From IMG/VR virus record IMGVR_UViG_3300018073_000005, positions 1 through 31,851 of that record: a DNA stretch of 31,851 bases; one strand, written 5' to 3'. A program made the position numbers and the translations under genes. Shown in pieces: positions 418 through 30,060 of the stretch (its first letter is position 1; each line of letters opens with the position of its first letter). The DNA is from a virus. The notes beneath the pieces are model-generated. The model made no database searches. It worked only from the letters and a program-made list of their open reading frames with translations, and was not told where the DNA came from.

Positions 418-418
418 G

Positions 419-709: not shown

Positions 710-723
710 GGCGGTGATCTCCT

Positions 724-3594: not shown

Positions 3595-5939
3595 CAGCTC
3601 GCCCCGAACTGCTGGCCTCTCATGGCCGCTCGCATAATCTCGTCGCTCACCTGGCGGGCGACGTCGGCGGCCGTGCCGTTCACGTGAATCGCGATGTGCT
3701 GCACGACGCCGGCCCGCCCGTTCGGGACGATGCCGCCGCTCGTCGAGGGCACGAAGAGTTCCGGCCCGCGCTCGCCGACCATGTAGGGCTGGCCGCTGGT
3801 GACCGGCCCGCCCGCGGCCCTGGCGAAGATCGGCGGGGCGACGTAGATGGGGCTCTGCATGCCAGTCTTCGGGCCGCCCACGGCGGCCGCATTGCCGACG
3901 ACGTCGACCGCCATCCCTTTTTGCACCTGGTTGGCCACGATGTTGAGCAAGGCCAGCGTATCCATCCCCTTCTTGGCGACCACATCGAGGGCATCTGTCG
4001 CGGACTTGCTAATCGCGGCAGCTTCGCGCGCGGCCTGCGCCATGATGAGCCGGGAGTACTCCTCCAACTGCGCCGGTGCCCCGGCGTACGCCTTGATCTT
4101 GGCCGCCGCGGCTTCGTTGACCTTGGCGATTTGGTAGTCGGTGCTGCTCAACGTCGAGCGCAGGATGAGGTCGTGTTCGTCCTGATGGAGTTTCGTGATC
4201 TCGTCGCTCGCCTTTTTTTCGGCTTCCTTCCGCTTCTGCGAGGACTCTTGTTCGACCTTGTCGAGGCCCAAGACGCCCTGCTCGCGCTCGCGGCGGTTGT
4301 CCTTCTCGATCTTCGCGATCTCCTTCAGGGTGTCCTGAAATTCCTTCAGCGCCCGGCCGTGCAGCCCGGTCGCCGTCGTGGCCGCCTCGGTCGAGGACGT
4401 CGATTCCTTGGTCTCCTTGATGTGCGTGGTCGTAGCACCTGTCGCGGCGACCATCGCATCGCGTGTCGTGACGAGGACGCCCCCCAGCTTGTCGAGCGTC
4501 TTATCGAACTCGGAATTGCCGGTCACGCCCTTGAAGGCTTCCTGGGCTTCGGCATCGAGGGCCTTGGCCGTGCCCCACAGTTCGTCGGCCATCGTGCGCG
4601 CCGACGCGGCGGCCAGGCGCGTTTGCTCCGTCGCGAAGGGCAGGTACGTGGCGCCCTGGGCAATGCGCGCATACGCCTCGGCCGCGGCGGCCGACATGTT
4701 CACCAGGCCGGACTCCACCCCGAGCACGACCGTCTTCACGAGCGACCACGCGATGTTGAAATCGCGCGCGCCCTCGATGGCGAACCGCGCAAAGTCGACC
4801 ACGACGATCGCCGCCTTATTGACCGCGAGGGCGATCGCATCAATCAGGGCTTGCTGATTGCCCCCGAAGGCGTCGACGAGCGCCTTCTTCAGCGTCGAGA
4901 AGCCCGCCTCGAGCGTCTCCGACTCCGCGATGGTCTTCCCGAGTGCCAGGCGGAAATTCGTCCACGAGGTCTCGGCCTGGGCGACGTGTTCGCCGAGCCC
5001 ATCGGTCTGTTCGCCGAGGCGGGCCGTGGCCGCCCCGACGGCCTTGAGCATCGCCTGGCGATCGGCGTGCAGCTTCTCGTCGTCGTCCAGTTTCTCGGCC
5101 GTGGTGCCCAGGCTGGCCGCGTAATCGTCCTCAGCCGCCTTCAGATCGATCTGCCCGGTGAGCATCTCCAGCGCCCGCCCCCGGCCGCTCAACATGGCGT
5201 CGTTCATCGTCTCGAGGGCGGTCTTGACGTCGACCCCGGTGGCTTGCGCCAGCGCGAACGCGCCCTTGGCGAGCGTGTTGAACTGCGCGTCGGTGAGCGT
5301 CATGCCGGCGGCGAGGTCCCGGTTCGCCACCTGCATGAGTTCAAAATCCGTGATCGTGTTGTGCGTGCCCGTGCGCAACGCGCCGAGGAGCGTGTCCCCG
5401 AGCCGGCCCGCTTCGTCGGTGAGATGGGCGAAGTTGCCGGCGACGCCCGAGACCGTGGCGCCCTCGAGCGCCAGTTCGCCGATCTCCGTGACGAGCTTGA
5501 CGATGGCGTCGAAGGCTTTCTCCGCGCCTTTCAGAATCAGATCGGCCGTCACGAAACTGCCGACCAAGGTCGAAAAGGAGGTCGTGGCGGTCTTCGCGCC
5601 CGTATCGAGCTTCTTGAAATCCTCCGCGAGCGCGGCGATTTCCGGCGGCACGGCCTGGCCCATTGCGGTCAACTTCTCGGCGGCCTCGGTGGCGGTCGCG
5701 CCGACCTTCCGGAGTTCCTTCTCCGTGAGGTTCGAGCTGCCGCCGACGCGCTCGACGGCCTCGGCCATCAGCGTCGCATCCTGGATGATCTTGCGCCCGG
5801 TAAAGTTGTCGACCATCCGATCGAGCGACGCCTTGACCTTCTCGGAGCCGGTCTCGAAGCCCTTGAGCGACACCACGGCCTCATCGCAGGCGCGCGTGAA
5901 GTCGCTGAAATCCGCGAACAGTTCGCCAGTCAGGGCCAT
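3594..5939 (-). CDS. Tail tape measure protein (781 aa)
   Basis: A long Ala/Leu/Glu/Lys-rich helical protein directly downstream of the frameshifted chaperone pair, with a Gly-rich C-terminal segment. ATG at 5939. Confidence 0.85.
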   Translation of the reverse strand: MALTGELFADFSDFTRACDEAVVSLKGFETGSEKVKASLDRMVDNFTGRKIIQDATLMAEAVERVGGSSNLTEKELRKVGATATEAAEKLTAMGQAVPPEIAALAEDFKKLDTGAKTATTSFSTLVGSFVTADLILKGAEKAFDAIVKLVTEIGELALEGATVSGVAGNFAHLTDEAGRLGDTLLGALRTGTHNTITDFELMQVANRDLAAGMTLTDAQFNTLAKGAFALAQATGVDVKTALETMNDAMLSGRGRALEMLTGQIDLKAAEDDYAASLGTTAEKLDDDEKLHADRQAMLKAVGAATARLGEQTDGLGEHVAQAETSWTNFRLALGKTIAESETLEAGFSTLKKALVDAFGGNQQALIDAIALAVNKAAIVVVDFARFAIEGARDFNIAWSLVKTVVLGVESGLVNMSAAAAEAYARIAQGATYLPFATEQTRLAAASARTMADELWGTAKALDAEAQEAFKGVTGNSEFDKTLDKLGGVLVTTRDAMVAATGATTTHIKETKESTSSTEAATTATGLHGRALKEFQDTLKEIAKIEKDNRREREQGVLGLDKVEQESSQKRKEAEKKASDEITKLHQDEHDLILRSTLSSTDYQIAKVNEAAAAKIKAYAGAPAQLEEYSRLIMAQAAREAAAISKSATDALDVVAKKGMDTLALLNIVANQVQKGMAVDVVGNAAAVGGPKTGMQSPIYVAPPIFARAAGGPVTSGQPYMVGERGPELFVPSTSGGIVPNGRAGVVQHIAIHVNGTAADVARQVSDEIMRAAMRGQQFGAS

Positions 5940-5942
5940 GCG

Positions 5943-6424
5943 TTATCGGCTTTCCTGATTCAGCATGTCGATCAGCACGGTATAGACCTCGCGCGGGAGG
6001 GCGCGCACGTCGTCATACGTCCAGTGCATCGCGCGGCAGACATTCAGGTCGCTGCGGATGCGGGCACGCCAGCCGTCCCAGCCGGGGTCGCCTTTTTTTT
6101 TGCGAGGAGTTGCTCTTGCGCGGCTTCGTGCTTGTCGAGCGCGGCGACCAGTTCGCGCAACGTCCCCTTGTCGAGGGCGCCGATGGTGTCGCGGCGCGCG
6201 GTCTCGGGGTCATCGAGGGCGTAGGGGATCGCTTGATCCGCCTCGCCGACGAACGACCAGCCCACGACATAGGCGAGGATTTTGGCGAACTTCTGCCGGT
6301 CGGCCATCGCGGTGAGGAGGTCGTAATACTCGCCCGCGTTCAGCTCACGCTTGCAATCGATCCAGTCGCCGTCCGACAGTGGCACGCGGACCACGGCGGG
6401 CAGGACGACCCGTGAACGCCCCAT
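5943..6424 (-). CDS. Tail assembly chaperone GT-like product via programmed -1 frameshift (about 160 aa)
   Basis: I hand-translated the -1 frame after A_AAA_AAG. It reads GDPGWDGWRARIRSDLNVCRAMHWTYDDVRALPREVYTVLIDMLNQESR, 49 codons with high GC3. It ends at TAA 5945-5943, 4 nt before the tape-measure ATG. Confidence 0.65.
6044..6424 (-). CDS. Tail assembly chaperone, G-like zero-frame product (126 aa)
   Basis: ATG at 6424 with AAGGAG upstream. It sits between the tail tube and tape measure genes and contains the slippery A-run near its 3' end. Confidence 0.75.
   Translation of the reverse strand: MGRSRVVLPAVVRVPLSDGDWIDCKRELNAGEYYDLLTAMADRQKFAKILAYVVGWSFVGEADQAIPYALDDPETARRDTIGALDKGTLRELVAALDKHEAAQEQLLAKKKATPAGTAGVPASAAT
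6092..6101 (-). promoter_or_regulatory. Slippery site A_AAA_AAG (dnaX-type heptamer inside an A9 run) for the -1 frameshift
   Basis: The plus strand shows T9 at 6093-6101. The zero-frame codons are GCA AAA AAA AAG. Confidence 0.65.
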
Positions 6425-6466
6425 AGACTCGTCTCCTTTGTTGCACCCAGGGATCCCGTCGAGGTC

Positions 6467-6730
6467 TTACCGCAGCGGCGGATCGAGCCACGCCGACCAC
6501 CGATGCCCGTCTGGATGGAGCGTCATCGATCGGATCGGCCAGCGCCACTCGCCTTTGGTGTGCTTCGCGTGGAGCACGAGCGGTCGCTGGGCCATCTTGA
6601 AGGCGTCCGCGAGGACCACAATGCCGCTCGCGGACCAGCCGCTGGTCTTCGACCAGGTCACGCGATAGCCGTTGATCGCCGCCGCCGTGTAGTACTGCCA
6701 CTTGACGGCGGCGACGACGCCCTCGATCAC
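6467..6730 (-). CDS. Hypothetical protein (87 aa) in tail module
   Basis: ATGA overlap with the tail tube gene stop (6727-6730). No motif recognised. Confidence 0.5.
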   Translation of the reverse strand: MIEGVVAAVKWQYYTAAAINGYRVTWSKTSGWSASGIVVLADAFKMAQRPLVLHAKHTKGEWRWPIRSMTLHPDGHRWSAWLDPPLR

Positions 6731-7194
6731 CCCCGGCGGTCCTCGTCACGGCGTGCGCCCCGCGCGGCGAGCGGCAGCGCCGTCGGGAAGGTCCACGGGC
6801 CGGCGCCGACGAACGTGCCCGAGACCGCGACGCCGCCATTGGCGTCGACCGAAATCTTGCCGTCGATCAGGCCCTTGCCGGCCCACTTGATGTCGACGTC
6901 GGCCTCGTTCGGGTACAGCTCGAGATAGGGCTTCGTGGTGCCGAAGATCACCGAGAACACATCGAGGCCATCGACAGGGTCGAACCATCCCCCGTAGCTG
7001 CCCTTCAAATCCGGAAGACCGTCGACGTATACGTGGTTTGAATCTCCAAACGCCGTGACGCGAACGTGGTCTTTGGACATGTCCAATTCCCACTTGTCGA
7101 GGCCCGCGACCACGACCGCGCCCACGCCGCCCACCCCGGCCGGATCCATCTTCACTTGCCCGTGCGCGCCATGCAGTCGATCATCAGCAGCCAT
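6727..7194 (-). CDS. Putative major tail (tube) protein (155 aa)
   Basis: ATG at 7194 with AAGGAGAAG upstream. It sits between the neck proteins and the chaperone pair. The assignment is positional. Confidence 0.55.
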   Translation of the reverse strand: MAADDRLHGAHGQVKMDPAGVGGVGAVVVAGLDKWELDMSKDHVRVTAFGDSNHVYVDGLPDLKGSYGGWFDPVDGLDVFSVIFGTTKPYLELYPNEADVDIKWAGKGLIDGKISVDANGGVAVSGTFVGAGPWTFPTALPLAARGARRDEDRRG

Positions 7195-7218
7195 TGGCTC
7201 TTCTCCTTCGGAACCCGG

Positions 7219-7668
7219 TTACAACGTGCGCGGCGAGACCCAGACGGTGAACTCGGCGCCGCGGTGACTCCAGCGAATCGAGCGGTCGATGTCGTCGATC
7301 TCGTCGTAGCGAATGCGATCCCGGCGCCGCGCCAGCTGCAGGCGGTAGCCGGGAATGGTCAGCGCCAGCGGCGGCGCCGGGGGTGGCGGGTCGAGGATCG
7401 CGTCGATGCGCGCTGCGGCCGCCTTGATGTTCCGGGCGCCGCCCCCTGTCGACAATTCGACGGCCTTGACGGCGTACACGTACGTCTCCCACGCCCGCCC
7501 GCCGAACTCGTGCACGTCCGCGTTGTCGGCCAGCGACACCAGCACGTACCGCGTCGACTTCTCGGGCGCGAGGCCGAAGTAGACCCCGTTCGGCATCAGC
7601 GCCAGCAGCTCGGTGTCGCTCCCGAGCCGCGCGACGATCGCGTTGTCGATGTCGGAGGAATCAGACAT
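7219..7668 (-). CDS. Putative tail completion/terminator protein (149 aa)
   Basis: Follows the gp10-like gene with an 8-nt overlap. Call is based on size and position only. Confidence 0.45.
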   Translation of the reverse strand: MSDSSDIDNAIVARLGSDTELLALMPNGVYFGLAPEKSTRYVLVSLADNADVHEFGGRAWETYVYAVKAVELSTGGGARNIKAAAARIDAILDPPPPAPPLALTIPGYRLQLARRRDRIRYDEIDDIDRSIRWSHRGAEFTVWVSPRTL

Positions 7669-8071
7669 GCCCCCGCACCTTTAGGCCGGCGCGCTCGAGT
7701 AGCTCCTCGATCTCGCCCCACATCTCCCGCCGATTCCGCGCCATCGTCTTGCCGTACGTATGCTTGGGCTCCATGCGCTTCAGCTTCCGGAGGCCGAAGT
7801 GCCGCGCCTCGGTCCCGTATTCATAGAGGTGCGCATGGGGCGCGCGGGTCTGCACGCGCGCCTTCGCGCCGAACGGACTCTTCGTGAACGTGACCTGCAC
7901 GCCCGCCCGCAGGTTCCCCGTCACCTTTGGATACGCGCGGCGCAGGTCCAGCACGGCGCGATTGCCTTGGGCCTCGATGATCTTGGCGGCCTCGCCCGCC
8001 AGTTCCGCCGGCAGGTTGCGGAGCGACGCCTTCAGCTCGTCGAGGCCGTCGATTTCAAACCAGGCACTCAT
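7661..8071 (-). CDS. HK97 gp10-family neck/tail-attachment protein (about 136 aa)
   Basis: ATG at 8071 forms an ATGA overlap with the upstream stop. Motifs TGNLRAGV and HLYEYGTE are typical of the gp10 family as I recall it. Confidence 0.65.
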   Translation of the reverse strand: MSAWFEIDGLDELKASLRNLPAELAGEAAKIIEAQGNRAVLDLRRAYPKVTGNLRAGVQVTFTKSPFGAKARVQTRAPHAHLYEYGTEARHFGLRKLKRMEPKHTYGKTMARNRREMWGEIEELLERAGLKVRGHV

Positions 8072-8421
8072 GGCGCGACCTCGACGCACAGCAGCACGAG
8101 TTCCACGTTCCGCTCGTCGGTATTCACCAAACTGATCACGCTGAACGTCCGGCCGTTGAAGTGCAGCCGCGTCTGGAGCGTGACCTGCGCGTGATAGGGC
8201 ATCGTCACGCGGTGCGTGGCCTGCGCGATGACGGTGCCGCCTTCGGCGCGCTCGCCCCCGCGCTCGAGCACCGGCAGGATGTTGGCGAACATCGCCGACG
8301 GCTGCAGCGGCACGGTCGTCTCGGTGAAGCTGCCATCGCTCGTCGGCACGGGCGGCCCCGGGTTGTCGAGCGTCACCCGGTGCGGCCGGAGACCCGCGGG
8401 CATCTGCATCAGCACGGGCAT
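8068..8421 (-). CDS. Head closure / head-tail adaptor protein (117 aa)
   Basis: The pattern HRVTL...DGSF...W...ANILP...HRVTMPY...RLHFNGRTFSVISLVN resembles SPP1 gp16/HK97-type head-tail joining proteins. Confidence 0.7.
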   Translation of the reverse strand: MPVLMQMPAGLRPHRVTLDNPGPPVPTSDGSFTETTVPLQPSAMFANILPVLERGGERAEGGTVIAQATHRVTMPYHAQVTLQTRLHFNGRTFSVISLVNTDERNVELVLLCVEVAP

Positions 8422-8425
8422 CGGC

Positions 8426-8761
8426 TTACACCAGCGTCGGGTCGCGCTTACGTTGCAGCAGCGCGGTAATCACCGGCGACAGGTACCCCTGCTCGCCCTG
8501 GTAGCCTTCGGACGCCCGCGCCGCGAGGGTTTCGGGGTCATCGCCGCGCCAGCGGTAGAGCGCCCCGAACTGCAGCAGGATCGCCTGCTGGACAATCCGA
8601 TCGCCGGTGAACAGCGTCGGGTCGGCGACCTTGAGGTAGTCCACGATGATGGCTTCCGCGGCGTCGAGCTTCAGCTGCAGATCGGGATCGCCCGCATCGC
8701 CGGCCGGCGTCGTCAGCCGCAGATGGTCTTTGCCTTCCTGCAAGGTCACCAGAACGCCCAT
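8426..8761 (-). CDS. gp6-like head-tail connector protein (about 111 aa)
   Basis: ATG at 8761 overlaps the upstream TGA by 1 nt. The N-terminal motif TLQEGKDHLRL...D...LKLDAAEAIIVDY is typical of the family. Confidence 0.7.
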   Translation of the reverse strand: MGVLVTLQEGKDHLRLTTPAGDAGDPDLQLKLDAAEAIIVDYLKVADPTLFTGDRIVQQAILLQFGALYRWRGDDPETLAARASEGYQGEQGYLSPVITALLQRKRDPTLV

Positions 8762-9318
8762 CACTTGTAACTCTTGGGATGCATCAGCAGGCGCCAGGGC
8801 GTCGCCCCGTTGCCGGGCCGGATCCCTTTGGTGACCGCTTTCGCCGTCCAGTACCCGCCGTCGTTCACGCAGGCGCCCTTGCCGTACGTCTCGTCGGCCT
8901 TGAACGTGCCGCGGTCATACGGAATCGGCAGGGGAAAGCTCTTGACCTGGTCGCCACGGCGGAAGGCCAGCGCGACCCCCGTGCCGTCGTCGGCGACGTC
9001 GAGGTCGTCAAACCCCAGCCCGTCGATCCCGTCCTTCCCGGGCGGTCCCGGCGGGCCAGGCTGCAAGGTTTTCACTTCCACGGCGGCGATCCGCTCTCGG
9101 ACGGTCCCCACGTCCACCAGGAGCGCCTCCACGCGGCGATCGAGCGCCGGGACGTCCTTGGCCTCGACCTGGGCGACCGTCGCCCTGAGGGCCACCAGGG
9201 CCGTCTCCGTGGCAGCCAGGGCGGCTTTCGTCGCGGCGAGTTCGGCCAGCACTGGCCCCATCGCGCCCTTCACCGTCCGGGCGAGGATCCGACCGACGTC
9301 GCCGGGGTTAGCCGACAC
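8761..9318 (-). CDS. Coiled-coil protein with short collagen-like Gly-X-Y stretch (185 aa)
   Basis: GTG start at 9318 overlaps the portal end. It has an Ala/Leu-rich heptad region, then GPPGPPGKDGIDG, then a C-terminal globular part. Confidence 0.6.
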   Translation of the reverse strand: MSANPGDVGRILARTVKGAMGPVLAELAATKAALAATETALVALRATVAQVEAKDVPALDRRVEALLVDVGTVRERIAAVEVKTLQPGPPGPPGKDGIDGLGFDDLDVADDGTGVALAFRRGDQVKSFPLPIPYDRGTFKADETYGKGACVNDGGYWTAKAVTKGIRPGNGATPWRLLMHPKSYK

Positions 9319-10699
9319 CGAGTTCCTCCTCGAAGGCGACCAGGAACGCCTGCTCGTCCTCGGCCGTCCAGCCCTTCGCCGCGACCTCGGGCGGCACCGC
9401 AGCCGGCCCCGGCGCGGGCTTGGCGAACGGCTGGTCGGCGTCGCGCGCCGCCAGCGCCTCGAGGGAGTAGTACTGCTGCTGCAGGTACGGCGAGTCGCCG
9501 CCCGGCACCGAGCCGACGCCGAAGTACTTCTTGCGGGCCTCGTTCGGCGCCAGCGCGCCCGACCCGATCGACTCGTTGGCGGCCTTCGTCCGGCTCATGG
9601 CGTCCATGTAGAACAGGTCTTCGACGTAGAACTCGGTCCCGTAGGCGTTGCCGAACTCCGGCCCGAGGCTGAGGCCGTGATCGAGCAGGGTCTCGATGCT
9701 GACGATCAGGGCCTGCAAACACTGACTGTGAAACTGGAGCGTCAACTGCTCGACGTTCCCGTACGCGGGCGTCTTGGTCGAATCGATCATGAACACCGGC
9801 ATCCGGAAACAGCCGCAGATCGGGACGGCCGTCCAGCCCAGTTGTTCGATCAGCTGCGCATCCTGGGCGTTCATCGCCAGGCCTTCGTACTTCAACCCGT
9901 CCGAGACGACGAGCAGCTTGCCGGCGTTCGGGCCGCTGTATTCGCGCGTGAACGTCTCCTTGAGCCGCGCCGCCTGCTCCTCGGTGATCGCGCCGGGCGC
10001 GATGAGAATGCCGCCGGGCCGGGACCCGTTGGCGAAGAAGTTGGCGGCGCCCTCGAGGATCTTGCTGCCCTGCAGGACCGCCATGGCGCAGGCGTAGATC
10101 GGCGTCACGCCGACCAGGGGATGAAACAGCGGCACCATCACGTCATGGATGATTTCGCTGGCCGGCACCACGGGCGTCGCCGCGACCTCCTCGGCCGTGA
10201 GCCCCGCCAGGTCATCCCGCCCGAGCTGGTAGTAGACAGCACCGTCCGGGGCCACGAGCGGCGTCACCTGGGTCGGATTGAGCACGTGCAGCGAGACGAC
10301 GACCCGGCGGTCATCGCGCACCTTGAGCACGTACGTATTGCCGTGCAGCAGTTTGCTCACGATCCACTGCTCGATAAACTGGCCCTGCGTCTGGTAGCGG
10401 TTCGGCTTGCGCAGCACCGGGGAGTAGGCAGAATTCGTCGTCTCGGACCAGATGCCCTCGGCGTCTTGCGCCACCAGGCACAGCGGGAGTTTGGCGATGT
10501 TGCTGGCGATCTGCGTGACGCACGCGAACACGGCCCAGTACGAGAGGGCCGTGTCCGTCGTGATCTCCTCGTTCTTCTGCCAGGCGCCCGTATACGGCTC
10601 GCGCACGACCGGCACCCAGCCGCCGGAGCCCCGCACGGGGACGGCCGAGGGCGCGGTCGGGCGCGCGAACAGCGAACGGATGGTCGCCAGCACGCCCAT
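9308..10699 (-). CDS. Portal protein, HK97 family (463 aa)
   Basis: ATG at 10699 (MGVLATIRSLF...). The 50-aa Arg-rich extension to 10849 overlaps the capsid gene and was trimmed. The sequence looks portal-like throughout (WQKNEE...YWAVFACV...PVLRKPN...GNTYV). Confidence 0.9.
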   Translation of the reverse strand: MGVLATIRSLFARPTAPSAVPVRGSGGWVPVVREPYTGAWQKNEEITTDTALSYWAVFACVTQIASNIAKLPLCLVAQDAEGIWSETTNSAYSPVLRKPNRYQTQGQFIEQWIVSKLLHGNTYVLKVRDDRRVVVSLHVLNPTQVTPLVAPDGAVYYQLGRDDLAGLTAEEVAATPVVPASEIIHDVMVPLFHPLVGVTPIYACAMAVLQGSKILEGAANFFANGSRPGGILIAPGAITEEQAARLKETFTREYSGPNAGKLLVVSDGLKYEGLAMNAQDAQLIEQLGWTAVPICGCFRMPVFMIDSTKTPAYGNVEQLTLQFHSQCLQALIVSIETLLDHGLSLGPEFGNAYGTEFYVEDLFYMDAMSRTKAANESIGSGALAPNEARKKYFGVGSVPGGDSPYLQQQYYSLEALAARDADQPFAKPAPGPAAVPPEVAAKGWTAEDEQAFLVAFEEELGVG

Positions 10700-13235: not shown

Positions 13236-15047
13236 TCACCCGAGCACCAGCATCTGATACACCGGCGGCGCCGCCGCGACGGCCGTGGATTGCCGGAGCA
13301 CGCCGCTGATCGCCAGCAGCAGCGCGTCGATCGCGTCGATCTTGTTCGCCGACTCGGGCGATTCCTTCTTCGGCAGGATCGAATCGTCGATCCGCCGGCT
13401 GACCACCACGTTGCTGGCCTGCCACTTGAGGCAGGCGTTGCCGTCGTGTTTAAACCGCCGATGCTTCACGCGGGCCTCGAGTTCCCGGGCGGGCGGCGTG
13501 AAGGATCGCGCGTTCTTTGGCTCCTGCCGGGCTGGCAGGCCGGCATTGAACAGGCTCCCCACCAGCTGCATCGAGCCGAACTGGTCGAACACGATGTCGC
13601 GCACGTCGAACATTGAACACCAGGCGCGCACGTCGGCTTCGATCTTCCCGTAGTCGATCATCGTGCCCTCAGTCAGCGTCAGCAGCCCGGCCTCGGCCCA
13701 GAGGCGATACTCGGGTACGGCGCGGGCGCGCTCGTGCACGACCTGCTCGGGCAGATAGCACCGCACGAACCCGACGAGTTGCTCGCCGTCGCGAAACACG
13801 AGCGCCACGGCCGCCAGGTCGTCGACCTGCGCGAGGTCGCCGCCAATCCAGCAAGGCCGGCCCGCGAACGCCTCAAGCGTCAGCTCCGGATCCGCGCACG
13901 CATCCCACGCCGCCATCGACAACCAGGAGGCGTGACTGTGCAGCCACCGGTTGCAGATCTTCGTTTGAAACTCGCCCTCGAGGCCGGGCGCCTGCTGGGC
14001 GTCGCGGCAGTACTGCTCGACCCATTCCCGCTTCGGCGTGATCCCGATCATCGGGTTCGCCTTCTGCCACACGCGCGGGTCGCGCCAATCGTCTTCGTCA
14101 TCAAGCGTAAAAATGAGGCCGCAGAGGTGATCCGCCTCGAACACGCCCTCGAGGACCTTCGTCAATTGCGTCCGCAGGGCATACCCGACCGACAGCATGT
14201 CGTAGCCGGCGGTCGTCGGGCAGAGCAGCAGGGGATTGCGGCGGGCGCCCTGGGCGCTCTTGAGCACGTCGTGCAGTTCAAACGTCTGCGCGTGCGATTC
14301 GTCGAGGATGATGCAGCTCGGGTTCAAACCGTCGAGCGTCGACGCCTTCGCGTTGACCGGCTGAATCGTCCCCGTCGCATCGGTGACGGCGTTCGCGTAG
14401 ACCTTGAGGCCGTGCGTCTCCTGCAGCCACCGCGAGCGGCGCACCATCCGCTGCAGGATCCGAAAGACGATCCGCGCCTGCTGCCCGGTGGTCGCGCCGC
14501 AGACAATCCACGCGCCGGCCTCCATCTCGTGCCGCATGTGGTAGAGCGCGATCGTCGCCATCAGCGTCGACTTCGCCGCCTTGCGCCCGACCTCGAGGTA
14601 ACACACCGTGGCACGCCGCAGGGTGGGATCGCGCCGCTGGCGCCAGCCGAACAGCGTCGTGACGAGGAAGATCTGCCAGGGCTCGAGGTGAATCAGCGCC
14701 GTCGGCCAGCTGCCCTCGACGTGCGGACACTGCTCGATGAACCGGCAGGCCTTGCGCGCGTGCGCGTCGCTCCAGACGTACGGCCAGGCCGGATCGGTCG
14801 TTGCCCGCGCCACGTCGCGCTGCTGCCGCGCGCAGCTGCGTTGCAACCACTTGCCCGCGACGACGCGGCCGCCCAGGACATCCGCCACGTACCGCCGTGC
14901 GATGCCGACGTAATCCCGCGCCGACCCCTTGGCCTTCGGTACGGGATCCCTCTTCGAACCGGTCTTGACCTGGCGCTTACGTTCGCGCCCCACCACGAGC
15001 GTGCCGCGGCGCTCTTTCTCGGTGAGAGGCAGATGTGGATTCGGCAT
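13236..15047 (-). CDS. terL: Terminase large subunit (603 aa)
   Basis: ATG at 15047. Size and sequence are typical of Terminase_1/HK97-like TerL (an ATPase region, then IILDESHA, then a nuclease C-terminal half). Confidence 0.92.
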   Translation of the reverse strand: MPNPHLPLTEKERRGTLVVGRERKRQVKTGSKRDPVPKAKGSARDYVGIARRYVADVLGGRVVAGKWLQRSCARQQRDVARATTDPAWPYVWSDAHARKACRFIEQCPHVEGSWPTALIHLEPWQIFLVTTLFGWRQRRDPTLRRATVCYLEVGRKAAKSTLMATIALYHMRHEMEAGAWIVCGATTGQQARIVFRILQRMVRRSRWLQETHGLKVYANAVTDATGTIQPVNAKASTLDGLNPSCIILDESHAQTFELHDVLKSAQGARRNPLLLCPTTAGYDMLSVGYALRTQLTKVLEGVFEADHLCGLIFTLDDEDDWRDPRVWQKANPMIGITPKREWVEQYCRDAQQAPGLEGEFQTKICNRWLHSHASWLSMAAWDACADPELTLEAFAGRPCWIGGDLAQVDDLAAVALVFRDGEQLVGFVRCYLPEQVVHERARAVPEYRLWAEAGLLTLTEGTMIDYGKIEADVRAWCSMFDVRDIVFDQFGSMQLVGSLFNAGLPARQEPKNARSFTPPARELEARVKHRRFKHDGNACLKWQASNVVVSRRIDDSILPKKESPESANKIDAIDALLLAISGVLRQSTAVAAAPPVYQMLVLG

Positions 15048-20443: not shown

Positions 20444-21037
20444 TCAGCCTTCCATTCCAGGAACACGTTCACCGACGATGATCGCGACCGCATCGAACAA
20501 CGTCCGCGGCGCCCGCTTCGCCAGCGCGAAGAACGCGTCCCGCGCACAGTACCACCGCGCCAGCTCCTCGCCGTGCGCCCAATGTCCCACAATTTCCACC
20601 ACGCCGCGGCGCGGATTAAAGGCTTGCTCGAGGTCGTCAGGGCCGAATTCGGTGGGCACATACCGAATCGGGCGATGAGAGATACCAGCCGACTGGCAGA
20701 GGAAGCATGCACAGGGCTCGTCCTCGTAGCCGAGGGCGGCGGCCCGGGCGAGCTCGTCGGCCTCGTCGACGCGCATCGTGCGCCGGTCGGCCGGGCACGT
20801 CGCGGTCATCGTCCTGGGCGTCAGTTCCGCGAGCCAGTCCGCGGCCTTGGGAAACACGCGGAGCTTCTCGATGCAGCGTTTGCCGGCGCCCATGACGTCG
20901 TCGATGGGGTGCGCCGCGAGCACGGCGAAATACGTCCGCGTCAGCGCCTCCCGTTCGGGGACGGGCAGCCGCACGCGAAACGCGGTGAGGACCACGCCGA
21001 AGGCCTTCTCGAAGGTGACGAAATCGAAATCCGTCAC
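20444..21037 (-). CDS. Hypothetical protein (197 aa), downstream partner of the replication-organizer-like gene
   Basis: ATGA-type overlap with the upstream gene. No Walker motif seen. Confidence 0.55.
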   Translation of the reverse strand: MTDFDFVTFEKAFGVVLTAFRVRLPVPEREALTRTYFAVLAAHPIDDVMGAGKRCIEKLRVFPKAADWLAELTPRTMTATCPADRRTMRVDEADELARAAALGYEDEPCACFLCQSAGISHRPIRYVPTEFGPDDLEQAFNPRRGVVEIVGHWAHGEELARWYCARDAFFALAKRAPRTLFDAVAIIVGERVPGMEG

Positions 21038-21651
21038 CGGCGTCGGGCTCCAAAATGTTTCGCCAACAACGCCTCGTCGACGGGCGCGGAGGCGCCACGC
21101 GCAGCGTGAGCGACCGCAGCGACCCGTCTTCGTTGCTTCTGATGTACACCGCCGCGCGGGTCGGAGGCGCGCGCTTTAGGCGCGCTCTCCTCGCGCGCAG
21201 CGCGAGTCTTACTATCAGAGGTAGAGGTAGAAATAGAAACAGAATCAGAAGTAGAAACAGAAGTAGTAACCGCCTGATTGGTTCCTGTCGGTTTCCTGAG
21301 TCGCTCGGGAACTTGGGCCGACTCAATCAGGGAAATATCCGGAAACTTACTCGGCTTCTCATTTGGGTGAATATGCTGGTATTTCAGCAGGTTCACGACC
21401 TGGATGACCGGCCCAGCGGCCGTGCGATAGCGCCGGATCCGGCCCGCGGCGGCCAGTTCATTGAGCGCCGCCGCGCACGATCGCGCATCGAGCGGCAGGA
21501 TCGCCCCGTCGATCATCTTGACCGAGTCGAGCAGCCTACCCTCCCGGTCGGCAATCAGCCAGAGCCCGGCGAAGACCAGGCGGGTGAAATCGGAGAGCGC
21601 GGCCAGGGTGGGGTCGCTGAAAAACTCGGGGTGCAGGAGTCGCGTGCGCAT
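21034..21651 (-). CDS. Putative replication initiator / replisome-organizer-like protein (205 aa)
   Basis: The N-terminal winged-helix-like region LHPEFFSDPTLAALSDFTRLVFAGLWLIADREGRL is typical of phage replisome organizers as I recall them. It has a central Ser/Thr linker and a basic C-terminus. Confidence 0.5.
   Translation of the reverse strand: MRTRLLHPEFFSDPTLAALSDFTRLVFAGLWLIADREGRLLDSVKMIDGAILPLDARSCAAALNELAAAGRIRRYRTAAGPVIQVVNLLKYQHIHPNEKPSKFPDISLIESAQVPERLRKPTGTNQAVTTSVSTSDSVSISTSTSDSKTRAAREESAPKARASDPRGGVHQKQRRRVAAVAHAARGASAPVDEALLAKHFGARRR
21217..21264. repeat. (AGA NNN)x8 hexamer repeat within a 35% GC island
   Basis: The plus strand reads aga ggt aga ggt aga aat aga aac aga atc aga agt aga aac aga agt. 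It encodes (X-Ser)n with eight consecutive TCT codons. Hand count gives 21/60 G+C over 21211-21270. Confidence 0.8.
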
Positions 21652-21666: not shown

Positions 21667-22338
21667 CTAACGAATGGGGTCATCGATCGAGAAGAAACGC
21701 ACGCCGGGGACTTGGCCGGAGCCCTTCATGGCGCTGGCGTACCGGCCCAACTTCACGGTGTCGATCGTCATGAAGTCGCGCGGCACTTCGGATTCAATAA
21801 CGACCTCGAACGTCCAGCGGCGCCGGAAGGTCTGGCCGGCAGCCTTGACGTCGTTCGGCAAGATGACCATCGGGGGCGGCGCCGCCAGCTGCTCGGCCAC
21901 GACGGCCGCGGCGAGTTGGTGTTCGCCGGCCCGCTCGAGGGCCGCGGCCTCCGCGGTGGCGCGCGCTTCATCCGCCAGGCGCCGGGCCTCGGCGAGCTCG
22001 CGTTCGCGCGCTTCACGCTGGCGGGTCTGTTCGTCGTTGAACGCGCGGATCTGCTCCTTCTCAAAATTATCGAGATTCGTGAGCGGTGCCAGCGCAGCGC
22101 GCTCGAGGGTGCAAAACCATTGATGTAAGGAATGCGCCCACGATTTGGGGCGCGCGAGTTGATCCGCGATCTGTTTCTGCCGGACGCCGATCTGGACCCG
22201 GACGTCCCGCGCGCGCGCCAGCGTCGCCAAGTCCGTGACAAGGACTTTGTTGAGTTCGACGAAGCTGATAACTTCTTTCGTCGTCGTGTTCATTTCTTCT
22301 TGCACGAGTTGCGGTGAGACGTCTTGCACCATCGTCAT
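21667..22338 (-). CDS. Hypothetical coiled-coil protein (223 aa)
   Basis: ATG at 22338 with GAGGG upstream. The central region is an Arg/Glu/Ala-rich helix. Confidence 0.6.
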   Translation of the reverse strand: MTMVQDVSPQLVQEEMNTTTKEVISFVELNKVLVTDLATLARARDVRVQIGVRQKQIADQLARPKSWAHSLHQWFCTLERAALAPLTNLDNFEKEQIRAFNDEQTRQREARERELAEARRLADEARATAEAAALERAGEHQLAAAVVAEQLAAPPPMVILPNDVKAAGQTFRRRWTFEVVIESEVPRDFMTIDTVKLGRYASAMKGSGQVPGVRFFSIDDPIR

Positions 22339-22362
22339 GTGCCCTCACGTTCAAAAACGGCA

Positions 22363-23280
22363 GGCCTCGCCTCGCCTCGTCACGCCGCTGCTCGCCGTGC
22401 CCTGCCTGCGCTCCCGAGCCCCGCCGTGCCTTACCAGTCCGTGCCCTGGCGTGCCACGCCTGCCGTGCCTTCCCCTGCCTTTCCAAGCCAGTCCCCGCCA
22501 CCCGTGCGAGGCCTGCCGTGCCGGTGCGTGCCCAGCCGGCCCAATCCGTGCCCGTCCGTGCCATGCCTGCCGCGCCGGTCCACGCCTTACCGCACCGATC
22601 CTCTACTTGCCATCCGCTCCACGTCGCGCCTAACCTGCTATGCCTCTCCAACGCGCGCCATTCCCCGTCGCGCCTCGCCAGTCGACGCCGGTGCACGCCT
22701 TACCCCGCTCGGCCTTGCCTGCCGCACCGTTCCATCCCTTTCCGCACCGCTCGAGTCCGTACCTAGCCTGCCGACGCTCGCCAATCCACACCTACCCAAA
22801 CCGTGCCCCTCTGCGCCATGCCGGACCTGCCGTGCCTCTTCCCGCCTCGCCTTGCCATCCGCCCCGTGCCGCGCGAAACCTGCCGCGCCAGTCCGCGCCG
22901 GTCGTTGCCACCCCCGGCCTAGCCGTTCCTCGCCCCGCCTCGCCGGTCCATGCCGGAGCTTGCGGCGCCTGCCGTGCCGCTTCATGCCGTAGCGCTCCAG
23001 TCCGTGCCTTTCCTGGCCCGCCCATGCGATGCCCAGCCTGCCGCGCCAGTCCCAACCGTGCTAGTCCATGCCCACCATCGCCACACCCGTCCATAGCCCG
23101 CCGTTCCAGTCCTTGCCGTGCCTGTCCCATCCAAGCCTGCCGTGCCGTCCCTCTCCGGGCTCGCCCAGGCCATCCCCGGCCATCCGCCGCCCCGCCGGCG
23201 CCGGGCCGGTTCGATCCGTGCCTCGCCTGCCGCGCGTGCCTCGCCCGGCGCAGCCCAGCCGCCCCACGTCGCGCCTAGCC
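22363..23280. repeat. Non-coding tract of about 180 phased pentamers (NNNCC on plus / GGNNN on minus) with embedded CCTGCCGYGCC and CCAGTCC motifs
   Basis: By hand parsing, roughly four of five consecutive 5-nt units end in CC. There are 11 same-orientation copies of CCTGCCG. All six frames give only short overlapping Arg/Gly/Ala/Pro ORFs. Confidence 0.85.
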
Positions 23281-23856
23281 CGCGCTACCGAGCGTCGATG
23301 CGTCGCCGCCAAGGGCAGACGACGACGCGTCTCCAGAGAGATCCGCGCGCGCCTCATCGAGCGCGAACCACACCGGCTGGAGTTCGGACAGTTCCGCATA
23401 CCGGCGGCGATACGCGGTCAGCTCCGCGATCACCTGCGCGAGGAGCTCCCCGCGCTTCTCGGGATCGGACAGGATCGCGGTGACGGGTTCATAGCCACCG
23501 TGTTCCTTGCGCATGCTCGGCCGGCTCTGGTAGCCACGGGTCGTCGAGATCGCGACCTGCCGCGTCGCCGGATCGGCCCGCACCACCGTGAAGCGCACGT
23601 GCCGCACGAGCGCGCCGACTTGCAAGAGGCGGTAGGCCTCTGCGGCGTCCCCGTCGTTCCACTCGAAGTACCGGTGGAGTACGTGCGTTGGGTCGCGCGC
23701 CACGTCGACCACCCGGCGGGGATTCAGGACCCCGTTGTTGCCTTCCACGATGGCGTGGAGGGCGGCGCTGAGTTGTTCGCGCTCGAGGTCGGCCGCCGTG
23801 GCTTTCATCTCCGGCGCGGTCTCGGCCTTCTCGGTCTTCTTCGCCTTTTTGCTCAT
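23275..23856 (-). CDS. Hypothetical protein (193 aa)
   Basis: ATG at 23856 (MSKKAKKTEK...) forms an ATGA overlap with the upstream gene. The conserved-looking core is THVLHRYFEWNDGDAAEAYRLLQ. The stop TAG is at 23275-23277. Confidence 0.6.
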   Translation of the reverse strand: MSKKAKKTEKAETAPEMKATAADLEREQLSAALHAIVEGNNGVLNPRRVVDVARDPTHVLHRYFEWNDGDAAEAYRLLQVGALVRHVRFTVVRADPATRQVAISTTRGYQSRPSMRKEHGGYEPVTAILSDPEKRGELLAQVIAELTAYRRRYAELSELQPVWFALDEARADLSGDASSSALGGDASTLGSAG

Positions 23857-24506
23857 GCTGCTCGCTCCTTTTCGGTGACGACGGTGAACGTGCCCCAGCC
23901 CATGCCCACAGAGTTCTTCGAGAATGGACGCCCTTCTCCCACACCCACCTGGCGTCCCGCGCGATCGAGCAGGTTGACGACCGACTCGAGCGTGATCATG
24001 TCCGCGTCGAATTCGACGGTGATGTTCGCCGCCCAGTCGCGCCAGAGCGGACGGATCCGGATGTCCGCGCTGCCGTTGTCGTTCCGCACGAGCATCTCCG
24101 TGCGCTCGGGCGGCGTCGGCGACTCGAGCTTGACGAGCGGCGTGCCGTCGGCCTTGTCGAATCCGTCGGCCACGACGAAGACGGCCATCTTGGCCTTCGT
24201 CATCACGAGATTCACCGTGCGGCAGGCGTCGATCATCGCCTTCCGAAACGCCGAGCACGGGATCCCGTTCCACCCCGCCACCGACACGTGCTGCGCCTGC
24301 TTGAAGTCCTCGTCGAAGTTCCGCGGCGGCCGCGCCGTCTTCGCTTTGCGCTCGGCCTTCGACGTCGACATGGCGGCCATCATCTGTTCCTTCGCCTTCT
24401 GCGAAAACGCGCACTGCACGAACGGGGATCGACCGACGATACGGAGCGTGACGGTGACGATGTTCGCCGGCTGAATGATCGCGACGCCTTCATCCTTCGG
24501 TGCCAT
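23853..24506 (-). CDS. Hypothetical protein (217 aa)
   Basis: ATG at 24506. Natural-looking sequence downstream of the nuclease gene. No motif assigned. Confidence 0.6.
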   Translation of the reverse strand: MAPKDEGVAIIQPANIVTVTLRIVGRSPFVQCAFSQKAKEQMMAAMSTSKAERKAKTARPPRNFDEDFKQAQHVSVAGWNGIPCSAFRKAMIDACRTVNLVMTKAKMAVFVVADGFDKADGTPLVKLESPTPPERTEMLVRNDNGSADIRIRPLWRDWAANITVEFDADMITLESVVNLLDRAGRQVGVGEGRPFSKNSVGMGWGTFTVVTEKERAA

Positions 24507-24588
24507 GGGATACCTGCCCTTCTATCGGGTCCACTGTTAGAGGGGTCGTGGACGATTCACCCCTTGCCGCCGTAAGCGGCCCGTCAGT

Positions 24589-25239
24589 TCATGTGACCTC
24601 GACGCGCCGCGCTCGCACGATGCGTTGGGCCTCCGCGAGCGCGAGAAATTTTCTAAAGTCGCCGGGGTCGTCGTAGCGGTGCAGCCCGAAGCTGCCATCC
24701 CGGTTCAGCGACACGGCGTACCGCCGGATGAGCGCGTGCCGTTGGAAGAAGGCGACCAGGCGGGGATCGGCGTCGGCGTCGATCGACATGTCGAGCGCGA
24801 AGCTGAGATACGCCGCGGTCTGCAAATCTTTGGCGGCGTCCTGGGGGCGGCCCGTGGCGTAATCAATCAACACGGCTTGGCCGTCGAGCTCGCCGAGGCA
24901 GTCGATCGTGCCCGCGATCTGGTGGCGCCGCGAGGCGATGCGGCACTCGTTCAAGATCGGCGTGAAGTTGCGCTGCCGACAGAACGAGAGCCAGCCTTCG
25001 AGGTAGCCGACGTAATCCGGGAAGTCGTGCTCGAACAGCTCGAGGTCGAGGTCGCCGTCGTTGAAGTACGCGATGGCCTGGTGCACCGTCGTGCCGCGGA
25101 CGCGTGCCGCCTCGAGGATCGACTCTGGGATCCCCGTGAAGTCGATCAGGCCGCTCGCCTTGAGGATGCCGGTGACCGAGGGCACGATGACGCCGTCGAG
25201 CGTGTAGGTGTGCGTCGCGTCGTCGAAGGTCAGGCTCAT
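24589..25239 (-). CDS. PD-(D/E)XK (RecB/Cas4-like) exonuclease (216 aa)
   Basis: It has the N-terminal HTYTLDG..VPSVTGIL motif and the core GTIDCLGELDGQAVLIDYATG (D...D-Y-x-T). It lies in a recombination module with RecT. Confidence 0.75.
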   Translation of the reverse strand: MSLTFDDATHTYTLDGVIVPSVTGILKASGLIDFTGIPESILEAARVRGTTVHQAIAYFNDGDLDLELFEHDFPDYVGYLEGWLSFCRQRNFTPILNECRIASRRHQIAGTIDCLGELDGQAVLIDYATGRPQDAAKDLQTAAYLSFALDMSIDADADPRLVAFFQRHALIRRYAVSLNRDGSFGLHRYDDPGDFRKFLALAEAQRIVRARRVEVT

Positions 25240-25657: not shown

Positions 25658-26542
25658 TCAGAACGGGATGTCGCCAGCGGTCGGCATCGGCGAGCCCGCG
25701 CCGTCGACCACCCTGAACTTCAGGAGGTTGTGATAGGTCTTGCCCTTGAAGTCGCGGTCCTCGAATGTGATCTCGATCCGGTGATCCGTGCCCTTGAACT
25801 TCTCCAGTTCCAGGGCGATGGCCGCGTCCTTGGTCGTGTACTCCCAGCTGTCAGTCACGAGGGTAATCGCGTAGTTGTCCTTGTTCGTGCCGAAGACACG
25901 GACGTCCTTCACGGCGGCGGGCGTGGTCACAAAGTGCGTGCTCGCGGCCGGCGCCGACGGCGGGGGCGGCATCGGCTTCTTCTCGGAGGCCCGCTTGACC
26001 GTCTTCGGCTGGCCGTCGCCGTCGAGGTTCTGCATCTCGTCGACGATATGCAGGCCTTCGAGTTCCAGCGGGAACCCCTTCCGCAGCGCCTGCGCCTCGG
26101 CACACTTCGCGAGCTGGTTGTGCGGCATCCGCTGCCACATGAAGTTGTTCGGCGGCGGCGGCGCGAACTCCGCGAACCGGGCGGTGGCCGTGAAGGCGCA
26201 CTTCTCCAGCTGCACCTGGCGGTAGACGGTGACGGTGGCGGCGAAGTCGAGGTCACCCGGCTGGCCCGTGTAGACCGCATCGTCGGTGCCCATGTGCTCG
26301 CGCGTCGCGCCCGCCCGGGAGCGGAAGAAGTCGATTGACGTGACCGGGGTGTACTTGCCCTGGCGCTTGGTGAAGTGAATGAGCTTGTCGAGCGGATGGA
26401 CGCCGCGGCGCCGGCAGTCATAGAAGAACAGCTCCAGCTCGGCGTCCGTCGCATCGGGCGCGACCGTGGCCTTGATGAGCGCGACTTGGTCCGAGGTGAT
26501 CACCACGGGAGCACGGTCGACGACCGCGAGGTCGGTAGACAT
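25658..26542 (-). CDS. recT: RecT/Bet-family single-strand annealing recombinase with an extra C-terminal domain ending in GDIPF (294 aa)
   Basis: ATG at 26542 with AGGAGG upstream. Motifs include LELFFYDCRRRGVHPL and QLAKCAEAQALRKGFP. The C-terminal ~95 aa are beta-rich and the last residues are D-I-P-F. Confidence 0.85.
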   Translation of the reverse strand: MSTDLAVVDRAPVVITSDQVALIKATVAPDATDAELELFFYDCRRRGVHPLDKLIHFTKRQGKYTPVTSIDFFRSRAGATREHMGTDDAVYTGQPGDLDFAATVTVYRQVQLEKCAFTATARFAEFAPPPPNNFMWQRMPHNQLAKCAEAQALRKGFPLELEGLHIVDEMQNLDGDGQPKTVKRASEKKPMPPPPSAPAASTHFVTTPAAVKDVRVFGTNKDNYAITLVTDSWEYTTKDAAIALELEKFKGTDHRIEITFEDRDFKGKTYHNLLKFRVVDGAGSPMPTAGDIPF

Positions 26543-29970: not shown

Positions 29971-30020
29971 TGGTGCGCCCGGGCAGATTTGAACTGCCGG
30001 CCCCCCGCTTAGGAGGCGGG
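29971..30020 (-). other. attP core candidate: 3' portion (anticodon arm to CCA) of a tRNA-Arg(CCU)
   Basis: The minus strand reads CCCGC CTCCTAA GCGGG GGGCC GGCAG TTCAAAT CTGCC CGGGCGC A CCA. That is an anticodon stem-loop with U33 and anticodon CCT, a T arm, a 3' acceptor strand and CCA. There is no matching 5' acceptor strand or D arm upstream. Confidence 0.75.
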
Positions 30021-30060
30021 TTTCCCATTCTGTAACACGGCCTCTGTCAGTAGTTTGCGC

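Follow-up and report, generated by a model that had tools for sequence, protein, structure and literature searches.

A phased pentamer tract in a viral genome is probably the guide-RNA array of a VIPR system

Introduction

What does a non-coding tract of almost 1 kb, built of phased five-nucleotide units and lying between two small genes, do in a viral genome? The original prediction, made from the letters alone, raised this question for positions 22363-23280 of a 31,851-nt stretch of viral DNA (hereafter the window, meaning that stretch at its full length). It put forward four hypotheses, namely (i) a binding array for a ring- or filament-forming protein, possibly encoded next to the tract, (ii) an R-loop origin or partition-like site, (iii) a rut-like Rho loading zone and (iv) a protein-sponge RNA, and held that no phage element of this form had been described. 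That last statement is outdated. Systems named VIPR (Viral Interference Programmable Repeat), a phage-encoded and CRISPR-like form of RNA-guided DNA silencing, were first described in two 2026 preprints (10.64898/2026.04.26.720920; 10.64898/2026.04.26.720927), which we reached through the name of PDB entry 36pp.

A VIPR system consists of a Vipr protein, which is a minimal RAMP with an RRM core, a G-loop and a thumb, and of vrRNAs with 9-16 YNNGG repeats, in which GGY is conserved and NN is hypervariable; a relaxed NNNGG consensus is allowed and internal degeneracy of vrRNAs is frequent (10.64898/2026.04.26.720920). Cryo-EM of Vipr on RNA showed a right-handed helical filament with one protomer per repeat, which sequesters GGY and presents NN (10.64898/2026.04.26.720927). 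The target is double-stranded DNA, in which one base per dinucleotide, usually the codon wobble, is passed over during reading; competing phages and satellites serve as natural targets (10.64898/2026.04.26.720920). Expression of vrRNA, the Vipr-vrRNA ribonucleoprotein, the binding of one protomer per repeat, the 1-nt-skip rule and target repression were shown for the SUSP1 and P. fulva systems, and transcriptional repression by the bound filament for type II systems (10.64898/2026.04.26.720920). In 'staggered arrays', successive vrRNAs overlap by 1 nt (fig. S18 legend; 10.64898/2026.04.26.720920). Besides such a stagger, a tail or a ribozyme may delimit single vrRNAs; the array is found on the strand of vipr, in intergenic DNA beside it, and the operon also holds an accessory vap gene.

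Here we propose, from sequence comparison and structure modelling, that the tract serves such a system as its guide-RNA (vrRNA) array, forming a co-oriented module with vipr (217 aa) and a vap-like gene (193 aa); we put the probability of this reading at about 0.9. The window array is a further example of an element class already described and no new category.

Results

A phased, non-coding tract of GGYNN units

Periodicity and a parse into units place the tract as follows.

22353..23285, minus strand: pentamer tract, putative vrRNA array, about 190 GGYNN units

The Fourier spectrum of CC positions across 22363-23280 peaked at a period of 4.90 nt with a power of 39.3, whereas 300 dinucleotide-preserving shuffles gave a mean of 5.4 (sd 1.5) and a maximum of 11.2. 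In 300-nt sliding windows along the whole 31.8 kb, the signal was confined to approximately 22200-23300. The predicted phasing is therefore real, with a mean period of 4.90 nt and not the 5.0 nt that had been assumed. Within the tract the G+C period-3 signal of coding DNA collapsed to 0.1-6, compared with 15-25 in the flanking genes, and stops occurred in all six frames (4-5 per sense frame, 1-3 per antisense frame). Protein coding was rejected on these two grounds, in agreement with the view that the tract is non-coding.

A dynamic-programming parse divided the tract into 187 units, comprising 164 of 5 nt, 20 of 4 nt and three of 6 nt. The units read NNRCC on the plus strand, which corresponds to GGYNN on the transcribed minus strand; 155 of the 187 (83%) end in CC, as the earlier figure of four in five had suggested, and plus-strand position 3 is biased towards G (92/164 of the 5-nt units). 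When the sense strand was parsed, GG opened 135 of 168 five-nucleotide units, leaving 33/168 without it. Position 3 of the GG-units was C or T in 95/135 and A (GGA) in 29/135 (21%), and positions 4-5 (NN) were near-uniform in base composition. More than 25 distinct unit types are present, only the CC/GG positions being fixed. The array begins at the stop codon of the 193-aa gene, which its first units overlap (GGC-TAG-GCG).

Longer motifs recur on this scaffold. The 16-mer CCTGCCGCGCCAGTCC was found twice, at 22879 and 23037, exactly as reported earlier. Of the 11 sites listed for CCTGCCG(Y)GCC, eight carry the strict motif CCTGCCG[CT]GCC (22459, 22512, 22566, 22826, 22879, 22968, 23037 and 23136), while 22718, 22767 and 23226 have the core CCTGCCG only. 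Tandem Repeats Finder (TRF) returned only short patches, with periods of 5-15 nt. A CRISPR array has direct repeats of about 25-40 nt and unique spacers of similar length, usually with cas1/cas2 close by. Such an array was rejected here, given the TRF periods of only 5-15 nt and an annotated tract neighbourhood that holds neither cas1/cas2 nor any other cas gene. The Rfam check that had been advised gave no family, either at the gathering threshold for the whole window or at E≤1 for the tract.

The tract lies downstream of a Vipr homologue

All neighbouring genes are on the minus strand, and the transcript of the tract would therefore read (GGYNN)n. In transcription order, the tract and its neighbours are RecT, exonuclease, the 217-aa and 193-aa proteins, the tract, a 223-aa protein and a replication initiator:

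25658-26542, minus strand: RecT (annotation)
24589-25239, minus strand: PD-(D/E)XK exonuclease (annotation)
23853..24506, minus strand: vipr, 217 aa, RAMP/Cas7-like (Vipr homology; phrog_4652 match)
23275..23856, minus strand: 193-aa vap-like accessory gene, flanked by vipr and the array (phrog_15946 match)
21667-22338, minus strand: 223-aa protein, next gene after the tract
21034-21651, minus strand: replication-initiation protein (annotation)

The 217-aa protein is a member of the Vipr family, as judged by sequence and model comparison. In a phmmer search it matched a single PDB entry, 36pp_D, 'SUSP1 Vipr protein' (E=9e-6), and a profile built from 29 diverse tract-adjacent homologues matched the same chain over residues 2-188 of 202 (E=7e-30). 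An AlphaFold2 model (pLDDT 79.4) was searched with Foldseek, and the top 50 PDB matches were all Cas7-type RAMP subunits (Csm3/Cas7/Cmr4, from type III and type VII effectors), the best being Csm3 with E down to 8e-6. In SUSP1 Vipr, H17, R138, D177, W178 and R179 contact GGY. The two arginines among them, R138 in the thumb and R179 in the G-loop, correspond to R152 and R193 of the window protein and are invariant in 30/30 sequences; the C-terminal G-loop GVGEGRP is also present. Overall identity to SUSP1 Vipr is 18%, and in an alignment at that level D177 is replaced by Glu, W178 by Gly, and H17 aligns to Cys32, beside Gln31. In SUSP1 Vipr, W178 stacks on G2 and the pocket excludes purines at repeat position 3 (10.64898/2026.04.26.720927).

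The 193-aa protein carries a conserved PLHxxFEWDDxxAAxxYRxxQARxLIR motif. Its homologues hold the same place in the module in 23 tract-bearing loci among the matches listed; they occur in the close relatives L123, L125, L127 and L130 and adjoin Vipr homologues in Mycobacterium and Gordonia phages. The family was not found beside the Vipr genes of Felixounavirus (SUSP1-like) phages. Because phrog_15946 is common to Mycobacterium cluster F and Gordonia phages and is not found beside Felixounavirus Vipr, the distribution of the accessory gene suggests a VIPR type other than II. Pfam gave no family for the 193-aa or the 223-aa neighbour, and a tblastn search of isolated phages with the 223-aa protein returned no match.

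Neither a sigma-70-like promoter nor a sense-strand terminator-like site was found in 22200-24700, a region covering the array and the gaps between vipr, the vap-like gene and the array. Co-transcription of the array with vipr and the vap-like gene would follow, because no promoter or terminator consensus separates them. On the plus strand, two overlapping terminator-like sites lie within vipr (24323-24339), a number within shuffle expectation.

Similar tracts follow vipr genes in other phages

The original prediction had advised a search for similar tracts in other phages, and such tracts were found. In a low-stringency blastn search of isolated phages, the tract itself matched Mycobacterium phages (Saal and relatives) and Gordonia phage UmaThurman. 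These loci obey the same pentamer grammar, in which a 4-nt TGCC unit recurs at intervals of 9-13 units. When IMG/VR was scanned for exact (GCCNN)x8, at least 120 stretches emerged; among the matches listed, tracts measure between 70 nt (14 units) and 1650 nt, and their contigs have a GC content of 39-75%. We then collected the ORFs lying no more than 2.5 kb from 142 clean tracts, which came from 94 viral-contig loci picked by the pattern (GCCNN)x8 alone, and clustered them by all-against-all BLASTP. A Vipr-family ORF (approximately 185-260 aa) lay within 2.5 kb in 69/94 loci, and 104/105 Vipr-family ORFs were on the strand on which the tract reads GGYNN (both among the matches listed). The tract often starts no more than 10 nt from the Vipr-family stop, or one gene further downstream.

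A plain pentanucleotide microsatellite, which would have one repeated unit, variation due to slippage and no conserved partner protein, was rejected in view of the more than 25 unit types, the short TRF patches and the linkage to Vipr across contigs of 39-75% GC. Elsewhere in the collection, the (GCCCC)n stretch of L031 is a true microsatellite, unlike the window tract. A compositional artefact of high GC was likewise rejected, as similar tracts are present in contigs of 39-47% GC; tract edges are sharp in low-GC contigs, and high GC therefore does not explain the tracts.

An origin prone to form R-loops or G-quadruplexes, or else a partition-like site, acting at the level of DNA or coupled to transcription, would suit a G-rich transcript over a C-rich template and a tract flanked by recombination genes (RecT, exonuclease) on one side and a replication-initiation gene on the other; immunoglobulin switch regions offer a pentamer-repeat analogue. 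In other phages, however, the tract follows Vipr and not replication genes, that of Saal sitting in the immunity-proximal early region, and single 14-unit tracts occur in 39%-GC contigs. Nor would such a site be expected to combine conserved GG with variable NN, or to match a foreign gene in codon phase as described below. Our search produced nothing in support of an R-loop origin or partition site, which the Vipr association makes unnecessary, and we consider it highly improbable.

Strand composition had also been noted as strongly skewed. The plus strand of the tract contains 445 C, 228 G, 159 T and 86 A, and the counts given for a 40-nt sample (19 C, 11 G) were reproduced. Antisense RNA would thus be C-rich and G-poor with YC every 5 nt or so, which would suit a rut-like Rho loading zone; alternatively, the RNA might act as a sponge for a host RNA-binding protein. 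Yet orientation is tied to vipr in the 104/105 cases above, lengths of 70-1650 nt go far beyond the needs of a rut site, and the strict 5-nt phase with its 4-nt boundaries would be left unexplained. Nothing was found in favour of a Rho loading zone or a sponge RNA; with the Vipr association at hand neither is needed, and both seem scarcely credible. The earlier view of the G-rich sense transcript as the RNA that matters also appears right.

Close relatives of the window locus, whose Vipr proteins are 70-88% identical, keep the vipr-vap-array synteny and the GG scaffold, with NN free to vary. Their arrays have no 20-mers in common with the window or with each other, with the exception of one stretch, a boundary plus two units, which the window shares with L123.

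Four-nucleotide units probably delimit candidate guides

A recurrent 4-nt phase slip had been noticed before. It is present as the sense-strand unit GGCA, and what had been missed is its likely role as a guide boundary. The sense-strand parse gave the following units:

23228..23231, minus strand: 4-nt GGCA register-break unit (example)
ends at 23138, 23039, 22970, 22881, 22828, 22769, 22720, 22568, 22514 and 22461, minus strand: further GGCA units
end at 22636, minus strand: variant break unit AGCA

The extended boundary form GG[CT]NNGGCAGG has nine copies in the tract. With one 4-nt unit per approximately 11 units, the expected mean period is (10x5+4)/11 = 4.91 nt, which accounts for the value of 4.90 rather than 5.0. 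A 4-nt unit in a 5-nt lattice is the DNA form of a 1-nt overlap between adjacent pentamer-phased RNAs, and GGCA most likely marks guide boundaries, in line with the published staggered arrays. By this parse the GGCA units divide the tract into about 14 candidate guides of 10-20 units each. Four of these segments exceed the published range of 9-16 repeats, with 17-20 units. Additional 4- and 6-nt slips also occur in the tract (GGAT, GGTG, GGCGAT). In L123, L125 and L127, nearly every segment of 8-13 units closes with GGCA, and these segments are cleaner than those of the window.

A candidate guide matches the portal gene of a satellite-like element

The earlier reading had overlooked the variable NN positions as a possible guide code for DNA targets. 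We searched with the published 1-nt-skip rule (NN x NN x ..., passing over one base after each dinucleotide). Two candidate guides are relevant here:

22881..22969, minus strand: candidate guide S5, 18 units, of which units 2-16 (22964-22890) match a putative natural target
22636..22719, minus strand: candidate guide S9 of 17 units, matching the portal gene family of the S5 target less well

Over 15 consecutive units of S5, 29/30 NN positions match positions 1658-1701 of L135 (IMG/VR contig UViG_3300009610_000181), including 12 perfect contiguous units. The skipped bases all fall on wobble (third) codon bases, phase 0, at the 3' end of a 395-aa ORF, which encodes a portal protein (phrog_12, E=1.5e-98). 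The 10-unit core of S5 (20 bases) returned five matches, two of them the identical sequence in L135 and in L131, a Vicinamibacterales MAG contig. The other three (two Firmicutes, one Pseudomonas viridiflava) were rejected, as their 3-4/14 flanking matches are at chance level. By contrast, we estimate that 9/10 flanking matches would arise by chance at approximately 1e-4 per core match, at about 0.3 per base. A portal homologue that is 90% identical (L137) retains 26/36 of the S5 positions.

The element that carries this portal gene is approximately 10.3 kb long, and its end carries a 75-nt repeat of the start region, a sign that the assembly may be circular. Among its products are an integrase, a replication initiator, an HNH endonuclease, a large terminase, the portal, a head protease and a major head protein; none of the ten ORFs scanned was recognised as a tail gene. 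We take this gene set to be that of a capsid-forming satellite. Over the longest aligned segment, 346 aa, the large terminase of the element shares 56% identity with that of the window (13335-14918). Because the guide would be aimed at the portal gene of an element with a related terminase, the system most likely serves the phage and the satellite in competing with each other.

S9 also matches the L135 portal gene, at position 1253 (17/20) and in the codon phase of S5, and its first 14 units match the portal homologue of L138 (72% identical) at 23/28 positions, again in that phase. As the 17/20 threshold was met twice in 326 kb of control loci, the S9 match alone is only suggestive. The guides of SUSP1 converge on a satellite with structural-gene homology to its helper (10.64898/2026.04.26.720920), and the convergence of S5 and S9 on one portal gene family in the window would parallel this.

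When all guides were scanned with mismatches allowed over the window and approximately 1.2 Mb of unrelated loci, no match exceeded the shuffled-guide controls; there is therefore no self-targeting within the window. Exact 1-nt-skip scans gave zero matches for S7, S11, S4, S9 and S14 in viral contigs, for S4 in genomes, and for S7 and S3a in metagenomes. By exact pattern, S5 alone yielded a target among S3a, S4, S5, S7, S9, S11 and S14.

Is the array decaying?

The window array could instead be a decaying and largely non-functional VIPR derivative, expanded by slippage and duplication, in which most segments hold no working guide. Its length, approximately 930 nt, is about double that of the arrays in close relatives (460-730 nt). 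The array is also more degenerate than those of L123, L125 and L127, with extra 4- and 6-nt slips, the 33/168 units that have no GG, and 29 GGA units compared with 1-3 in these three relatives; degeneracy in L130 is comparable (95/128). A convincing target, moreover, was obtained for one guide only. Nevertheless, phase is held along the entire tract, and 12 contiguous units of S5 match a plausible competitor perfectly. Phage genomes seldom keep 0.9 kb of useless DNA, and frequent internal degeneracy is a feature of published vrRNAs (10.64898/2026.04.26.720920). We therefore regard decay as improbable and retain the VIPR array as the preferred reading.

Discussion

Taken together, hypothesis (i), a binding array for a filament-forming protein encoded in the flank, appears right in substance, the 217-aa neighbour being a Vipr homologue. 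The array would probably be transcribed with, or just downstream of, vipr and the vap-like gene as a G-rich (GGYNN)n RNA. By homology, Vipr protomers would bind this RNA one per pentamer, sequester GGY and present the two variable bases. The GGCA units would shift the register by 1 nt every 10-20 repeats or so and thereby delimit the approximately 14 guides. The resulting filament is predicted to read double-stranded DNA through NN, skipping every third target base, and its binding would repress transcription of the bound gene. The divergent window Vipr may be active on GGA units, and at least one guide would be aimed at the portal gene of the 10.3-kb integrase-bearing element, with genes for head and packaging but none recognised for a tail. 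Against the VIPR reading count the degenerate array, its 29 GGA units, the 18% identity to SUSP1 Vipr, the replacement of W178 by Gly, the alignment of H17 to Cys/Gln, segments of 17-20 units and the fact that, among the guides scanned by exact pattern, S5 alone has a target.

A further idea, which we consider possible yet doubtful, is that this locus and its Mycobacterium and Gordonia relatives form a VIPR subtype outside the seven published types, with long tail-less arrays in which the GGCA break alone sets guide boundaries. Such a subtype would be marked by the phrog_15946 accessory protein (FEWDD...YR..QAR), a G-loop that has no stacking Trp and tolerance of purines at position 3. Each GGCA would interrupt the filament of one protomer per 5 nt, so that processing would be measured by the protein and not by a ribozyme or structured tail. 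Hammerhead or other ribozymes were not found between the arrays in L081 and four other loci; sub-threshold twister-like matches occurred in L009 only, elsewhere than between arrays.

The locus matters in several respects. An element class was noticed from sequence alone soon after its first description, with a mechanism that was roughly right, which validates scanning of this kind. The window array is among the longer ones here, with about 14 candidate guides. It also supplies a concrete candidate guide-target pair, window 22964-22890 and the portal gene of a satellite-like element, 10.3 kb long, which was binned with a Vicinamibacterales genome. Finally, Mycobacterium cluster F and Gordonia phages, although well studied, appear to contain VIPR systems that have gone unrecognised or been annotated as proteins.

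Comparison with known systems

The TRAP (G/U)AG arrays of the Bacillus trp leader resemble the window tract in having conserved triplets, variable spacers of 2-3 nt and an oligomeric reader in which each repeat is taken by one subunit. The fold of TRAP is unrelated, and its 11 subunits close into a ring that binds 11 repeats for attenuation. In the window the reader is predicted to be an open helical filament, the repeats number about 190 and the spacers would hold the targeting information.

Class 1 CRISPR-Cas effectors (Cas7/Csm3) share the RAMP fold with the window protein, as the Foldseek matches to Csm3 indicate, and a guide array is encoded beside the protein in both. Like VIPR, they place one protomer on each fixed increment of RNA, with a thumb that flips bases from the guide-target duplex. 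The increment is 5 nt in VIPR (3 sequestered, 2 pairing) and 6 nt in Class 1 CRISPR-Cas (1 flipped). The window locus also differs in having no repeat-spacer architecture and no cas genes, and in being phage-encoded.

The characterised VIPR systems differ from the window in some respects. The window Vipr has 18% identity to that of SUSP1, with Gly in place of the G-loop Trp, and its array has neither a 3' tail nor pseudoknot modules. With about 14 candidate guides in 0.93 kb, the array is unusually long, and it is degenerate, with 21% GGA; the accessory family phrog_15946 is common to the Mycobacterium and Gordonia systems and was not found beside the SUSP1-like systems of Felixounavirus. With the staggered form of VIPR, the window shares a RAMP-like Vipr of approximately 20 kDa, a second small gene, a GGY/NN array on the same strand and, between its candidate guides, a putative 1-nt register overlap. 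Common to VIPR and the window, on sequence grounds in the latter, is a 1-nt-skip match with skips at wobble positions to a target in a competing satellite-like element.

Arrays in isolated phages

Homologs of Vipr, the RAMP/Cas7-like protein of the VIPR system, were found by tblastn (E≤1e-3) in 141 isolated phage records, among them 27 Mycobacterium phages, 7 Gordonia phages and Felixounavirus-like phages of E. coli and Salmonella. Cyanophage Cy-LDV1 encodes a Vipr homolog at 54% identity (tblastn). The pentamer arrays of two isolated phages lie as follows:

NC_031249 33362-33685 (locus L002 3981-4304), Gordonia phage UmaThurman: gp40, a hypothetical protein in the annotation, is in fact a VIPR-type array of the form (GGYNN)n
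NC_023580 (locus L001 3915-4165), Mycobacterium phage Saal: array in the gap between gp50 and gp51

The UmaThurman array is flanked by gp39, a Vipr homolog, and gp41, a vap-like gene. Equally, gp51 of Saal is a Vipr homolog and gp52 is vap-like.

The window array and its closest relatives

The window array (22353-23285) has roughly double the length of the arrays in its closest relatives, L123 (6188-6645), L125 (6185-6690) and L127 (6180-6655). GGA units are also far more frequent in it (29 of 135, compared with 1-3 of ~75 in these three loci), as are irregular 4- and 6-nt slips (GGAT three times, GGTG and GGCGAT). These differences could reflect relaxed recognition at position 3 or partial decay of the array. 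Two further features were annotated in the window:

21667-22338, minus strand: gene for a 223-aa protein, next downstream of the array; PHROG gives nothing stronger than a weak match to 'exonuclease' (phrog_10477, E=4e-9)
29974-30044, minus strand: tRNA gene (Rfam RF00005, 33 bits), the sole Rfam match within the window

In the relatives L123 and L127, the corresponding post-array position holds a gene of 216-222 aa.

Tracts in low-GC contigs

Single, sharply bounded tracts of NNGCC units were present in three contigs of 39-47% GC:

L024 381-560 and 1011-1190: 14 units
L011 5061-5250: 14 units
L075 2631-2840: 30 units

Their presence at such GC content shows that the pentamer element is independent of the base composition of the host. 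In L024, a Shine-Dalgarno sequence and an ATG lie on the same strand, 8 nt beyond the tract end. One locus collected by the (GCCNN)x8 pattern scan, L031 (6123-6330), was rejected as a VIPR-type array; it consists of a simple (GCCCC)n / GGCTC microsatellite of 87% GC and is a false positive of the scan.

A satellite-like element

L135 (IMGVR_UViG_3300009610_000181, 1-10326), the contig whose portal gene matches guide S5, is identical to L131, the contig DAIRVG010000195.1 of a Vicinamibacterales MAG. Because 75 nt of its start region recur at its end, a circular assembly of this 10.3-kb contig is suggested. It encodes an integrase, a replication initiator, an HNH endonuclease, a large terminase, a portal, a head protease and a major head protein, and no tail gene was recognised in the ten ORFs scanned. 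In its gene content, L135/L131 resembles a capsid-forming satellite. Five related elements were found in IMG/VR (L137-L141). The binning of the L135/L131 contig hints that the host of the window phage belongs to the Vicinamibacterales (Acidobacteriota).

Arrays in other contigs

On contig L009, two twister-P5 ribozyme-like matches (2001-2082 and 2663-2747, plus strand; 36.2 and 30.9 bits), both slightly under the Rfam gathering score of 37.6 bits, lie ~4 kb away from a 790-nt pentamer array. Locus L081 (4311-5180) carries three pentamer arrays in tandem, each of 30-60 units and followed by a conserved ~90-nt spacer; no ribozyme was found there with Rfam. These arrays and spacers may represent a vrRNA-plus-tail module architecture, in contrast to the window array, which is staggered and has no tails.
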